Part shown: positions 39,155 through 42,139 of the stretch, one piece after another
Position numbering within the stretch: position 1 is the stretch's first letter
Layout: the number at the start of each line of letters is the position of its first letter
Source: an uncultured Muribaculaceae bacterium
GTDB lineage: Bacteria > Pseudomonadota > Alphaproteobacteria > Rs-D84
Direction of reading: 5' to 3'
Assembly: GCA_964619545.1 (NCBI GenBank)
Contig: CAZUED010000001.1
Location: 1 to 47,897, forward strand
DNA: 47,897 nucleotides
Translations under genes and position numbers: made by a program
The notes under the pieces: generated by a model
Seen by the model: the letters and a program-made list of their open reading frames with translations, nothing else
Database searches by the model: none
Told to the model about the DNA's origin: nothing

Positions 39155-39181
39155 AAAAAACTGCCGCAACCGGCAGTTTTT
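39153..39181. terminator. Bidirectional terminator between the HExxH gene and the SIMPL gene
   Basis: CTGCCG-CAAC-CGGCAG (39161-39176) flanked by A8 and T5. The genes are convergent. Confidence 0.8.
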
Positions 39182-39935
39182 ATTTAAGGTAAAAACTTAT
39201 CGTCGACACGACACGAATTTTTTTATAAATCGATTGTTTTTCATCATAGTTAAATCCAGCAACAGGGTCGCGCGGCTCTATACTGAAAACCCCTTGAGTC
39301 GCATTTTGTATAGGACCCAGTTTTGCCCCAGCATCTTTTGCAAATTGCTGTGCGGCCTGACCTGCGTTTTTTGTAGCCTGTTCAATCATCGATATTTTAA
39401 TGTCGTTCAAGCCATTAAATACATAGACAGGTCCAGTATAATCTTCTTTAATAGTTATTCCTTGGCGAACCAAATCGCCCATTCTTCTAGAAGTATTATC
39501 AACCATATTTACATTATTTGATCGAACCATGACACCAGTTTCAATAACATAGCGACCTTGGTTTTTATCCGACGAAATGTTTTCTTTCAAAGAAATAGGA
39601 TCATAGCCCGCAAAGTTGTCGCGCACCTGAACACGAGTGTTTTGAATTTCGGATTCAGCAAAGCCCGAATCAATCAAGAATTTTTTAATTTTCAAAATGT
39701 CTGAATCAACCGCAGTCTGTAAAGCAGCCAAGTCCCCACCGACTTTGGAAATGTTGATGTTCCAAACTGCCATATCAGCAACGGCGTCTCGCTCGGCCAA
39801 GCCCTTGACCGAAACGATACGTTTATTGCCAGCATTATAAACACCATTTCCGACAAAATATCCGCCCAAAACCAGCCCCAGCGATAAAACTGCTGCCGCC
39901 GGCAGCAAGTACTTTTTTATATTTTCGTCTTTCAT
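39180..39935 (-). CDS. SIMPL domain (BP26/Omp28-like) periplasmic protein
   Basis: 251 aa. N-terminal TM/signal, then ...RIVSVKGLAERDAVADMAVWNINI... and overall size and pattern typical of DUF541/SIMPL. Confidence 0.7.
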   Translation of the reverse strand: MKDENIKKYLLPAAAVLSLGLVLGGYFVGNGVYNAGNKRIVSVKGLAERDAVADMAVWNINISKVGGDLAALQTAVDSDILKIKKFLIDSGFAESEIQNTRVQVRDNFAGYDPISLKENISSDKNQGRYVIETGVMVRSNNVNMVDNTSRRMGDLVRQGITIKEDYTGPVYVFNGLNDIKISMIEQATKNAGQAAQQFAKDAGAKLGPIQNATQGVFSIEPRDPVAGFNYDEKQSIYKKIRVVSTISFYLK

Positions 39936-39980
39936 GACATTCTCTCTTGTTCAGCCAAAACATTATAGCAGAGAAAAGAA

Positions 39981-41075
39981 TTATTTACAATGGATAGACA
40001 AATCAAAACGCCTTTGCTTGTAAAATACGAACACAGGGATAAATCCAAACAACTTGTACTTTATCTTGCTAGGTTTGTTTTTGATTGTCAGCAATGGAAA
40101 GAAACCGAAAAGCTCAATCTTGGTCTCTTTGCTTTTGCGCTTTAATAAATAAAGCAGTAATCCAGTCTCGTTTTCAGAAATTAAAAAGTTCCACAAATCT
40201 ATATCTAACGAAGTCAATAGTTCTGGGCTGCGGCATTTTTTGAATAAAGCGATAGCAGATTTGACGACAAAAAATTGACTTTGCATCGAGAGATTTCTGT
40301 AAAACAAATCTGATAAAATTCGACTTAATCTGCCCGAGCAAGCAATGTCATAAGAAACCCGGTCTAAATTCAATTGGTTTATAAAACTAATAATGTTGTC
40401 GAAAGACGCGATAGAGGATTTGACCTTTGCGTATGACAAGCGTGGTGAGTCCAAACTGCCGGGACGGCGAATATAGTTATAAAAAGTCCCCGGCGCAAAA
40501 GCAATTTGGTCGGTGGTAAAAACAGCGCGAGTCAAAAAAGCAATGTCTTGGGCGACAATAATTCCAACGGGGAAGGTGATTTTATTGTGAATTAAAAAAT
40601 CGCGGCGATAAATGGCGGTTGTAAATTCGCCTTGGAACCAGGCCTTGTTTTCTTTTATCTTGGCAAGTCGATTGCTAAGTTTAATTTCACCATTGGGCTC
40701 AAAGGTTTTTAGCTCGGCCTTTGCAATGTCTGCGTCCGCAGCGGTTGCGGCAGCGTAAAGTCTTTCATAGAAATCAAGGTCAACAAAATCGTCCGGATCA
40801 ACAAAGCCAACATATTCGCCGCGCGCGGCGCCCAGGCCTGCATTGCGGGCAACAGCCGCGCCTCCGTTTTCAGGCAATTGAATAATAGTAATTTTTGCTG
40901 GATACTTTTTTTGATAGTCCAGCAAAACAGATAAAGAGTCATCGGTTGAAGCATCATCGACGCAGATAATTTCGATATCGGACAAGGTTTGATTCAACAA
41001 GGAATCCAAAGCGCGCGGCAGCCAAGGCGCGACATTGAAAACAGGGACAATAACAGAAACTTTGATAAGGGACAT
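39981..41075 (-). CDS. Glycosyltransferase family 2
   Basis: I prefer the ATG at 41075 (GGAG RBS). MSLIKVSVIVPVFNVAPWLPRALDSLLNQT, DDASTD, GFVDPDD (DxD). The C-terminal about 150 aa has no recognisable domain. Confidence 0.88.
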   Translation of the reverse strand: MSLIKVSVIVPVFNVAPWLPRALDSLLNQTLSDIEIICVDDASTDDSLSVLLDYQKKYPAKITIIQLPENGGAAVARNAGLGAARGEYVGFVDPDDFVDLDFYERLYAAATAADADIAKAELKTFEPNGEIKLSNRLAKIKENKAWFQGEFTTAIYRRDFLIHNKITFPVGIIVAQDIAFLTRAVFTTDQIAFAPGTFYNYIRRPGSLDSPRLSYAKVKSSIASFDNIISFINQLNLDRVSYDIACSGRLSRILSDLFYRNLSMQSQFFVVKSAIALFKKCRSPELLTSLDIDLWNFLISENETGLLLYLLKRKSKETKIELFGFFPLLTIKNKPSKIKYKLFGFIPVFVFYKQRRFDLSIHCK

Positions 41076-41091
41076 AACTAACTCCATGGTT

Positions 41092-41206
41092 GAAAAAACC
41101 GCCAAAGAATTGGCGGTCGGGGAGTTTAGAAGTCATTACTCATAACCCCGCGCTTTTGGTCAAGACCTATGGTATAGCTAACGGCTCCCCGACCATGGTC
41201 GGGGGA
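41092..41206 (-). promoter_or_regulatory. Structured 5' leader of the GT2 gene: intrinsic terminator plus three mutually exclusive pairing segments
   Basis: In minus sense, ACCGCCAA-TTCT-TTGGCGGT + T6 (41092-41117) lies 17 nt before the ATG. Plus-strand GGTCGGGGAG (41115-41124), CTCCCCGACC (41185-41194) and GGTCGGGGGA (41197-41206): the middle segment can pair with either flank. Confidence 0.5.
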
Positions 41207-41467
41207 TTTTAACGACGCACGCGCGTCGGAGTAAAAGAGCTTCTAACGGCCCGAACCCAAAATCCCTTTCGGTTTCATTGAAAAGTATAACACACCCCAC
41301 CCAAAATGCAAATGATTGATTTTACAATTGTTTCCGATTCGTGGTATTAAAAAAATGCCCCAGAACACTATGTTTTCTGCGGAATAAAAAAACCTTGCTT
41401 TAATTTTGGAAAAAATATAAGAATCGGATAAAGGGCTCAATTCCTTTCGAAATCAAGCCCCGAAACC

Positions 41468-41511
41468 AGCAAGATAATCTTACTAGCCAAACACTTACAG
41501 ATTATCTTGCT
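41468..41511. repeat. 13-bp perfect inverted repeat with an 18-nt spacer
   Basis: AGCAAGATAATCT (41468-41480) and AGATTATCTTGCT (41499-41511), about 60 nt upstream of the small ORF at 41570. Confidence 0.8.
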
Positions 41512-41569
41512 CCGATTCACTTGTCAATCATATTTTCGATTGGCAGCATTTCTTAAAAAGGAGCTTAAA

Positions 41570-41695
41570 ATGGCAAATGGTATACGTACCACCGCAAAAA
41601 CAGCATCCAAAGCATCTGATCTTTTAAGGAGTTCTAATACTTCATCAAAGACAAAATCTGTTGCTGCAGGATGTTTGGGCAATAGAGGCAAATAA
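41570..41695 (+). CDS. Small hypothetical protein (41 aa, K/S/T-rich)
   Basis: ATG at 41570, preceded by AAAGGAG with 7-nt spacing. MANGIRTTAKTASKASDLLRSSNTSSKTKSVAAGCLGNRGK. Followed directly by a strong terminator. Confidence 0.5.
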   Translation: MANGIRTTAKTASKASDLLRSSNTSSKTKSVAAGCLGNRGK

Positions 41696-41697
41696 CC

Positions 41698-41722
41698 AAA
41701 CCCGCCATTTGGCGGGTTATTT
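41698..41722. terminator. Bidirectional terminator between the small ORF and the KTSC gene
   Basis: AACCCGCC-ATTT-GGCGGGTT (41698-41717) followed by ATTTT. Confidence 0.8.
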
Positions 41723-41729
41723 TGATTTT

Positions 41730-41942
41730 TTACCTGATTTTCTCAAAACGATATTTATCTTTAATATGGTGGTCAAAATAAGTCCCGACAGAAGATGTAA
41801 AAATCAAGCCTTGGTATTCCGAGGTCGGAACTTGAAAATATCTGTATATTCCGCCACTATGAAATTCGATTTCTAAAATAAAGTTAATTTGATCAAAGCC
41901 AACACTTTTTATATTGCTAGACTTGACATTAACTCTATCCAT
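41730..41942 (-). CDS. KTSC domain-containing protein
   Basis: I prefer the ATG at 41942. MDRVNVKSSNIKSVGFDQINFILEIEFHSGGIYRYFQVPTSEYQGLIFTSSVGTYFDHHIK matches the KTSC pattern (SSxIxxxGYD...LxVxFxxGxxYxYxxVPxxxYxxLxxAxSxGxYFNxxI). Confidence 0.72.
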   Translation of the reverse strand: MDRVNVKSSNIKSVGFDQINFILEIEFHSGGIYRYFQVPTSEYQGLIFTSSVGTYFDHHIKDKYRFEKIR

Positions 41943-42062
41943 AATAGCCTTCTTTGGTTGTATTACATTAACAATACAATCAAATTTTAATAAAATAAAA
42001 TGGATTTTATTCCTTTTTATAAAACAAAAAACCACCCATAAGGGATGATTTTACTTTTTATT

Positions 42063-42139
<77 letters not shown>

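Follow-up and report, generated by a model that had tools for sequence, protein, structure and literature searches.

The DNA analysed here is a stretch of 47,897 nucleotides (nt) from contig CAZUED010000001.1 of an uncultured alphaproteobacterium of the lineage Rs-D84 (assembly GCA_964619545.1), referred to as the window, and the element in question lies on its minus strand, directly upstream of a gene for a GT2 glycosyltransferase. This element probably specifies a self-contained, cis-acting transcription-attenuation leader RNA with two mutually exclusive folds, a terminating fold (Fold A) and a read-through fold (Fold B). The leader is neither a product of chance nor a REP-like repeat, and on the comparative sequence evidence both sets of helices are under selection. 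The coordinates of the leader features were read on the minus strand throughout and are collected in Table 1.

Two alternative folds of the GT2 leader

An earlier reading of the window, made from its letters only and called here the sequence-only reading, had proposed an intrinsic terminator with a UUCU loop and a U run ending 17 nt before the ATG of the GT2 gene, and direct inspection of the sequence bore this out. The terminator arms are ACCGCCAA (41117..41110) and UUGGCGGU (41105..41098), the U run extends to 41093, and the distance to the ATG leaves no space for a promoter of the GT2 gene itself. The three 10-nt segments named in the same reading, c (UCCCCCGACC), d (GGUCGGGGAG) and f (CUCCCCGACC), are present where it had placed them. 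Its claim that d pairs perfectly with either partner holds for f, with which d forms a perfect helix of 10 bp, but not for c, which matches d at 8 of 10 positions across a 2-nt gap and in practice gives 7 bp closing a CAUG loop. The leader was also found to be markedly more GC-rich than the adjoining spacer, as had been noted (0.49-0.51 vs 0.35-0.38), and the minimum free energy (MFE) of the leader region was -73 kcal/mol, with z = -2.9 against shuffles. A consensus scan detected a putative sigma-70-like promoter with a -35 element TTTGCA/TTGCAT (41312..41306), a 17-nt spacer and an extended -10 element TGTTATACT (TGT-TATACT, 41292..41284), and the predicted transcript start falls at ~41279-41276.

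Homologues of the leader were collected with two sequence patterns and a covariance model (handles beginning with L denote individual loci). The species-representative genomes were scanned with the pattern CCCCGACC-N2-6-GGTCGGGG-N50-80-CCCCGACC, and the loci recovered from Ca. Enterousia, 'Rickettsiales' and other metagenome-assembled genomes (MAGs) aligned with the window over the whole RNA. The covariance model R1 was built from 13 of the genome-scan loci and found additional copies outside the pattern (L079 2500-2722, L054 618-797 and a truncated copy in L106). The pattern used for metagenomes was anchored only in the 5' hairpin and an AUGAUUU motif, with c, d and f left free, and it added 19 strong and three weaker matches. 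Alignment A2 holds 35 homologues (32 distinct sequences) from uncultured low-GC Alphaproteobacteria and metagenomes. The window leader scored 159.6 bits with R1 in the sense orientation and 36.2 bits in antisense. No real match was found by blastn of the leader against plasmids and phages, and no similar leader was seen in the upstream regions of the closest GT2 homologues (<=45% identity); thus, the leader does not travel with the GT2 family. The genome pattern also caught repeat arrays (L058, L027, L038 and L048) with a CRISPR-like spacing of ~65-145 nt, the repeats of which contain CCCCGACC...GGTCGGGG; these are unrelated to the leader, and some other matches of the pattern were due to chance.

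Fold A is made of the 5' hairpin P1, the long-range helices P2 and P3, the variable hairpin P3b, the c:d hairpin P4, the P5/P6 arm with an AUA.AAUA internal loop, and the terminator. RNAalifold on 13 sequences gave compensatory changes in 24 of 52 pairs. Over the 32 distinct sequences, 96.5% of the alignment cells were paired and 45 of the 52 pairs showed changes on both sides; none of 500 shuffles was as good on any measure, and only 37-49% of cells were paired when the partners were slid by 1-3 columns. P2 and P3, which the sequence-only reading had not described, clamp the 5' half of the RNA onto its 3' half and are completely paired across the family (100% of cells each), with every pair of both helices covarying (6 of 6 in P3). 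In the consensus, P2 joins the 5' GGG and UAGUAA with the 3' UUACUA and the CCC of f, and 6 of 6 pairs covary in the UAGUAA/UUACUA part. P1 showed compensatory changes in 8 of 8 pairs with 97.3% of cells paired. The 5' hairpin, reported earlier as CCGAA...UUCGG, is real (41276..41253), but the family consensus pairs GAAACCGAA with UUUGGGUUC instead. Similarly, the hairpin CGACGC-GCGU-GCGUCG exists as P3b, at 41228..41213 and not at 41211-41226; 5 of its 5 pairs covary, and some homologues carry 30-55 extra nt there. The c:d hairpin covaries in 6 of 8 pairs (93.7% paired) and the terminator helix in 4 of 7 (96.9% paired). Since G-U pairs are conserved in the consensus fold and the score is 160 bits in sense vs 36 in antisense, selection acts on the RNA of the sense strand. 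The sequence GCCGUUAG, said earlier to occur twice, does so, probably by chance: the expected number is 0.53, 8 of 100 shuffles gave at least two, and the two sites are unlike in the homologues of A2. This repeat was rejected as a feature.

Fold B is built on the d:f helix. Its 10 pairs were 95.9% paired over the 32 distinct sequences and 6 of the 10 showed compensatory changes, vs 84.5% paired in shuffles (0 of 500 as good) and 32-61% in slid controls; the covariation score was 0.285, vs 0.091 for shuffles. The alignment carries no bias towards d:f, having been fitted to Fold A. The two outermost pairs, d9:f2 (AU in 17 sequences, UA in 7, GC in 3) and d10:f1 (GC in 25, UA in 7), fall at positions that are unpaired in Fold A, and their covariation is therefore explained only by the d:f helix. 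Diverged copies keep c, d and f matched (GGUUGGAGG/CCUCCAACC, GGCAGGAGU/GCUCCUGCC and UGUCGGGCGU/ACGCCCGACC). The CCC of f pairs with segment b in Fold A, the whole of f pairs with d in Fold B, and the terminator stem begins with the 3' ACC of f (consensus GACC). The P5/P6 arm, two helices of the consensus structure, is present in both folds. The loop of hairpin P7 is the 3' strand of P3, so that P7 and P3 exclude each other; P7 (consensus UCAU/AUGA) was 95.5% paired with only one-sided changes in the register of A2, and two divergent copies read by eye have it as CUAU/AUAG. Fold B as a whole was 94.7% paired over 32 sequences, with double changes in 15 of 25 pairs. Thus, compensatory changes were found in the terminator, c:d and d:f alike when covariation was looked for in homologous leaders, and the comparative data support the earlier proposal that d can pair either upstream or with a distal segment that overlaps the terminator, and that this choice controls read-through.

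A b:c helix considered as the second half of Fold B was rejected, as it is not kept in the divergent copies L054b, L111b and L060. In the window, GGGAUUUU (41259..41266, in the loop and 3' strand of P1) is the exact 8-bp complement of AAAAUCCC (41204..41211), which runs into segment c from its 5' side. In the constrained Fold B of the window copy the two are paired, and c would thereby be kept from d; the pairing is only partial in other copies as read from the alignment, and it is not claimed as a family feature.

Table 1. Leader features predicted in the window, with the downstream gene (coordinates in the window; f., fold)
Feature	Coordinates	Strand	Basis
Promoter-like site	41284..41312	-	Consensus scan
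Structured leader RNA, ~186 nt, predicted start to end of terminator U run	41093..41278	-	Model R1 and alignment A2
P1, 5' hairpin GAAACCGAA / UUUGGGUUC, GGGA in loop	41253..41276	-	Helix in consensus fold
P2 5' strand, GGG (41252..41250, segment b) and UUAGAAG (41246..41240); partners 41132..41126 and CCC of segment f	41240..41252	-	Consensus helices, window MFE
P2 3' strand, CUUCUAA	41126..41132	-	Consensus helix
P3 5' strand UUACUC; partner GAGUAA at 41141..41136	41229..41234	-	Consensus helix
P3b, variable hairpin CGACGC-GCGU-GCGUCG	41213..41228	-	Consensus helix, alignment
Segment c UCCCCCGACC, 5' arm of hairpin P4	41197..41206	-	Consensus helix
Segment d GGUCGGGGAG; partner c (terminating f.) or f (read-through f.)	41185..41194	-	Consensus helices
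P5/P6 arm CCGUUAGC ... GCGCGG, enclosing conserved AUACCAUA internal loop and hairpin GGUC-UU-GACC	41148..41184	-	
P7, local hairpin GUUAU-GAGUA-AUGAC	41132..41146	-	Read-through f.
Segment f CUCCCCGACC	41115..41124	-	d:f helix test on A2
Intrinsic terminator ACCGCCAA-UUCU-UUGGCGGU and U run	41093..41117	-	Sequence read directly, consensus helix
Cargo: ribosome-binding site GGAG (41085..41082) and GT2 gene, ATG 41075, 364 aa	39981..41085	-	PF00535, E = 8e-35

Proposed attenuation mechanism

In the mechanism proposed here, a sigma-70-type promoter would start an RNA of ~186 nt that adopts either fold. In Fold A, the default OFF state, the P2 and P3 clamp would be closed, c and d would form their local hairpin, with c serving as an anti-antiterminator, and the CCC of f would pair with the 5' GGG. 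The terminator, the 5' strand of which starts with the 3' end of f, would then form, and RNA polymerase would stop at 41093, short of the GT2 start codon. In Fold B, the ON state, d:f would form over 10 bp, P7 would replace P3, and a three-way junction like that of the small RNA (sRNA) sRNA-Xcc1 would arise. The 3' end of f would be sequestered, a terminator stem of 5 bp (GCCAA/UUGGC) would be left, and transcription would read through into the GT2 gene. The computed energies of the window copy were -70.3 kcal/mol for Fold A and -64.2 kcal/mol for Fold B, and those of the nascent RNA before the 3' terminator arm were -58.1 and -53.6 kcal/mol, respectively. Fold A is the more stable, and therefore termination should be the default. 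We infer that Fold A is the default both kinetically and thermodynamically, and that some factor would shift the balance to Fold B. As to the identity of this factor, binding of the conserved three-way junction by a small molecule or a protein is our best guess, and titration of the 5' half is less likely. The junction keeps conserved unpaired nucleotides, and surface and secreted proteins make up a dispersed 'regulon'; both would suit either a dedicated RNA-binding protein or a riboswitch that responds to a global signal. A riboswitch of the latter kind, sensing for example a second messenger, is counted here as a form of the attenuation leader.

The leader resembles known riboswitches and attenuators in having exclusive anti-antiterminator (c:d), antiterminator (d:f) and terminator helices and a structured upstream domain, and it resembles second-messenger riboswitches in the many copies per genome before diverse surface and secreted-protein genes. 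It differs from the c-di-GMP-I, T-box and trp-type leaders in having no leader peptide, no tRNA-binding signature and no match to a curated riboswitch family. It also differs from an attenuator in that the refolding is unusually global, the whole 5' half pairing with the 3' half. A trp-type leader peptide was considered and rejected: the candidate start is NUG in many copies and ACG or UGG in others, no frame is conserved, and single-base indels are spread over the whole 5' half of the alignment.

Several points weigh against an attenuation switch with two working states. Segments c, d and f were fixed in the pattern that yielded the genome-scan set, so their covariation rests on ~20 other sequences, several of them closely related, and the E-values of R1 are rough owing to a shortened calibration. 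P7 is almost invariant and its pairing is barely tested by the alignment. Segment f has a further partner in b, in Fold A, which accounts for part of its conservation. Fold B is ~6 kcal/mol less stable than Fold A in the window copy, so that nearly every transcript may be terminated. Both ends of the RNA and the read-through are predictions, and no recurrent neighbour gene that could be a candidate trans-acting factor was found in the surroundings of the copies.

Relationship to Brt RNAs and sRNA-Xcc1

The window and the narrow leader region were scanned with Rfam, and nothing was found for the leader at gathering or permissive thresholds. The sequence-only reading had found no match among riboswitch consensus sequences (TPP, SAM-II, cobalamin, c-di-GMP-I and fluoride). 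No Rfam riboswitch matched either, but the leader is related to the Brt RNAs of Bartonella, and members of its family match the Rfam family sRNA-Xcc1 below threshold.

Brt1-9 are nine RNAs of 194-203 nt, each followed after 10-18 nt by an XRE gene (trp) that is poorly transcribed, and they are among the most abundant transcripts of B. henselae (PMC5387305). Brt copies on Bartonella plasmids (L142 and L143) were located via published primer sequences. R1, which was built without Bartonella sequence, matched them at L142 903-1100(-) with 30.2 bits and at L143 903-1099(-) with 31.1 bits (E ~5e-9 to 9e-9, which is rough). Both matches are full length, on the strand of an annotated helix-turn-helix (HTH) gene and directly upstream of it. 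In the Brt sequence P1, P2 (UUAAAAG/CUUUUAA), P3 (AAUUAUAG/CUAUAAUU), c:d and d:f (UUCCGGGAG/CUCCCGGAA) are all readable in different letters. The modest R1 score and the helix-by-helix reading together suggest that the family of the window leader is a distant relative of the Brt RNAs. Both are multi-copy RNAs of plastic genome regions with their own promoter (predicted here), and the length of ~186 nt predicted here is close to that of Brt. Both end shortly before a promoter-less gene, 10-18 nt for Brt and 17 nt for the window leader; the 3' stem-loop of Brt acts as an attenuator, and attenuation is proposed for the window leader. Several members of the new family, like Brt, precede XRE or small HTH genes. 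In contrast, the cargo in the window is a GT2 gene and not an XRE regulator, and Brt was described as confined to the genus Bartonella, whereas the new copies come from unrelated, uncultured gut Alphaproteobacteria. Sequence identity between the two is too low for detection by BLAST. The Brt copy examined has Fold B as its MFE structure and no U run after its last hairpin, and its segment f could pair with the Shine-Dalgarno region; the Brt expression platform may thus differ from that of the window family.

sRNA-Xcc1 was mapped as a free sRNA of 88 nt and is regarded as trans-acting (PMC2996969). It occurs in Xanthomonas campestris and is borne on integrons, islands and phages; its occurrence in integron cassettes is reported (Chen et al. 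2011, cited in PMC12189769; PMC4909258). The gathering score of its Rfam model (RF02221) is 53 bits. In the permissive Rfam scans the two copies in L054 and the copy in L075 scored 40.2-42.5 bits on the 3' half of the RNA, no family member scanned reached the gathering score, and the window copy gave no RF02221 match at gathering or at E <= 10. With no such match, the window copy cannot be filed in RF02221. In the alignment of L054 to RF02221, the closing helix is d:f and the two arms are P5/P6 and P7. The structure of Xcc1, a GC-rich closing helix of 9-10 bp, an arm with a AUACAAUA internal loop and a short hairpin, a second hairpin and a short joining strand, is that of the 3' half of the leader in Fold B. 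Its arm AUACAAUA-CCC-GAAA-GGG corresponds to P5/P6, and the three-way junction of the window, GGUCGGGGAG...AUACCAUA-GGUC-UU-GACC...GUUAU-GAGUA-AUGAC...CUCCCCGACC, is arranged as in RF02221. The two families also share a multi-copy distribution on variable or mobile DNA. The Rfam model differs in having neither the 5' half (P1, P2, P3 and c) nor the terminator. The predicted promoter ~85 nt upstream of segment d argues for a primary transcript longer than the 88 nt of Xcc1. A link between Brt and Xcc1 was not found in the searchable literature.

Two above-threshold Xcc1 sequences were read as controls, L144:547-800 from a Nitratidesulfovibrio vulgaris plasmid (69.7 bits) and L145:540-777 from a Neisseria gonorrhoeae record (68.8 bits). 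Upstream of both are segments that complement the P7 loop and the joining strand in the manner of P2 and P3 (CUUGAACA/GUGUUCAAG and GCACAAAGCGG/CCGUGCUUUGUG are examples), and in L144 a gene lies 46 nt downstream of the Xcc1 copy. RF02221 may, as a rule, correspond to the 3' domain of a bistable leader that extends further upstream. A second leader-like element was seen on the Bartonella plasmids (L142:1494-1726 and L143:1476-1704), 0.6 kb from the Brt copy and upstream of a gene for a hypothetical protein. It scored 12.7-15.4 bits with R1, and its 3' part 47-49.5 bits against RF02221, just below gathering.

These two relatives bear on an explanation in which the leader is a stand-alone, trans-acting sRNA gene of the Brt or sRNA-Xcc1 type, the GT2 gene being transcribed by unregulated leak-through or from an unseen promoter and d:f serving the structure of the mature sRNA. 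The strong promoter-like site and canonical terminator of the leader, the abundance of the Brt RNAs, the mapping of Xcc1 as a free RNA, and the few copies without a gene directly downstream (L111 and L136) would all suit such a gene. We nevertheless hold it unlikely, since Folds A and B cannot coexist, yet both are under selection, and since in a finished sRNA the last bases of f are taken up by the terminator hairpin, which makes the full d:f helix impossible. Moreover, most copies are followed, 12-52 nt after the terminator, by a ribosome-binding site (RBS) and a gene on the same strand, with no space for a promoter, and deletion of the 3' stem-loop of Brt1 de-represses trp1 (PMC8070961). 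The cis and trans roles are not exclusive; trans action of the terminated RNA was proposed earlier for Brt1, and by analogy the terminated 186-nt RNA of the attenuation leader may also act in trans.

The Brt work also touches on a purely physical switch, such as an RNA thermometer, that would need no bound factor. The two folds lie within ~6 kcal/mol, the organisms are host-associated, and the thermometer idea was raised for Brt (PMC8070961). For Brt1, however, trp transcription did not change at 27-37 C and pH 6.6-7.2, and an effect of heme was suggested (PMC8070961). The gut symbionts live at constant temperature, and the leader keeps many conserved unpaired nucleotides that a thermometer would not need. 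A physical switch is thus very improbable, and an attenuation leader that responds to a bound factor is preferred.

Cargo genes, genomic setting and significance

The promoter-like site recurs in all 35 homologues, with a hexamer TTGnnn resembling a -35 element and an extended -10 element resembling TGnTATAAT that ends 4-8 nt before the RNA, and it is often preceded by the terminator of an upstream gene. In the window, a hairpin GGGGCUUGAUU-UCGAAAGG-AAUUGAGCCC followed by a U-rich stretch is found on the minus strand at ~41433..41461, ~120 nt upstream of the leader promoter; it may terminate a transcript from further upstream that is not annotated. In L123 a sub-threshold Rfam match to the Wolbachia sRNA WsnRNA46 (1387-1529, 45 bits vs 65.3, E = 3e-6) lies ~60 nt upstream of a leader copy.

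The genes downstream of the copies are heterogeneous. About 20 encode signal-peptide or membrane proteins of unknown family, one encodes a trypsin-like protein (PF00089), and eight encode small HTH-like or XRE proteins (HTH_3, PF01381, in L119 and L111; small HTH-like proteins in L025, L040, L054, L088, L106 and L124). GT2 genes follow the leader twice, in the window and in L134, and the two proteins are 34% identical to each other. Because the cargo is unrelated across copies, the leader is modular and portable and not specific to GT2, and a nucleotide-sugar ligand is unlikely. In L121:4430-4641 and L138:4156-4367 an identical leader (125.7 bits each) is followed after the RBS by different genes (121 aa and 239 aa), which suggests a cassette-like exchange of cargo downstream of it.

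This variety decides against a classical metabolite riboswitch for the glycosyltransferase pathway, responding for example to a nucleotide sugar or a cell-envelope precursor. A conserved covarying domain with an exclusive terminator/antiterminator platform was found, as such a riboswitch would have. The multi-helix junction keeps unpaired AUA.AAUA, GAAA and GGAGUCAU conserved ahead of that platform, and a second member does precede a GT2 gene (L134). No single coherent pathway was found among the cargo, however; GT2 accounts for only two genes, the identical leader of L121 and L138 serves different ones, and no Rfam riboswitch matches. We regard this explanation as having very little chance of being right.

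More than one copy was seen in several genomes or contigs: two loci occur in one Enterousia MAG (L040 and L088), two copies lie within 8 kb in L054 and also in L079, and four are on one contig (L111 and L112). The window holds one copy, and no second copy was found within its 48 kb. tRNA genes are frequent neighbours of the leader, at distances of 0.1-0.8 kb, as in L025, L054, L111, L141 and the window, and in L025 and L054 a tRNA is ~100 nt upstream of the leader. In the window a tRNA-Met gene is at 42063..42139 on the minus strand, and the 2.9 kb at 39157..42047, holding genes for a SIMPL protein and the GT2 protein, the leader, a small open reading frame (ORF) and a KTSC-domain gene, look like a variable islet. 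This segment is absent from the relatives L010 and L011 (80-86% nucleotide identity), in which VirB4, a gene of 204-216 aa, tRNA-Met, DUF374 and LpxK are contiguous; with the whole cassette absent, these close relatives offer no orthologous leader to align. In a third relative, L009, the SIMPL gene abuts a piece of tRNA-Met and an integrase/HEPN island. The absence of 39157..42047 from relatives therefore marks the GT2 gene, the leader and the KTSC gene as a strain-specific cassette on the 3' side of tRNA-Met.

Among 5.8 billion proteins, no homologue of the GT2 protein exceeded 45% identity, and several neighbouring proteins have close relatives in clusters at >=90% identity. The GC content of the GT2 gene (39981..41075) is split: the N-terminal catalytic domain has 0.46-0.51 and the C-terminal third 0.34. 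The gene may be chimeric or recently acquired. The small ORF (42 aa, MANGIRTTAKTASK..., no Pfam match) is on the plus strand within 41567..41718, and 4 nt beyond its end stands a terminator-like hairpin, AACCCGCCATTTGGCGGGTT (41699..41718), which is bidirectional and also follows the minus-strand KTSC gene. This hairpin gave a weak Rfam match to Trp_leader (26 bits vs 41), which probably reflects only the terminator. A weak match to the FdoG-1 thermometer on the plus strand at 41954..42100 (29 bits vs 50, E = 6e-5) falls in an AT-rich region overlapping the start of the KTSC gene and tRNA-Met, and is probably spurious.

The genomic setting brings in one more explanation, that of a DNA-level element without RNA function, such as a REP/RPE-like repeat, an attC-like site or the end of a mobile cassette. 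The multi-copy nature of the leader, its position before unrelated genes and often near tRNA genes, the strain-specific cassette beside tRNA-Met, and the reported occurrence of sRNA-Xcc1 in integron cassettes would be expected of such an element. The sequence-only reading had itself foreseen that the segment might prove to be a dispersed palindromic repeat. The element is indeed multi-copy and its downstream genes are unrelated, but a promoter and a terminator accompany every copy and covariation is seen at the RNA level, so it is not REP-like. A REP/RPE-like repeat was accordingly rejected. Read on the opposite strand, the conserved G-U pairs would become A-C mismatches, the covariance-model scores show a strong strand asymmetry, the promoter lies at a fixed distance upstream and the terminator with its U run downstream in each copy, the long-range helices are nested and form no simple palindrome, and the window has a single copy in 48 kb. 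A DNA-level element is thus scarcely credible.

A broader and more tentative proposal, to which we give not quite even weight, is that the window leader, the Brt RNAs and sRNA-Xcc1 form one unrecognised superfamily of bistable cis-regulatory leaders on variable or mobile loci across Proteobacteria. The Rfam model would then represent only the 3' domain, that is the ON state, and one common signal (a second messenger, heme or another host cue, or an RNA-binding protein) would co-ordinate secreted and surface proteins, surface-modifying enzymes and small HTH regulators. The Brt RNAs, called 'genus-specific' to Bartonella, are now joined by more than 30 diverse sequences with a two-state model backed by covariation, which names the exact bases to mutate; the Brt work lacked such a model. 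sRNA-Xcc1, annotated as a trans-acting sRNA in genomes, islands, integrons and phages, may be the 3' domain of a longer cis-acting switch, and if this is true many existing annotations would have to be read differently. The leader is a candidate orphan riboswitch with unusually global refolding. It stands before secreted proteins, a surface glycosyltransferase and small regulators in uncultured gut Alphaproteobacteria with reduced genomes, and whatever flips it probably controls what these bacteria present on their surface to a host or partner.

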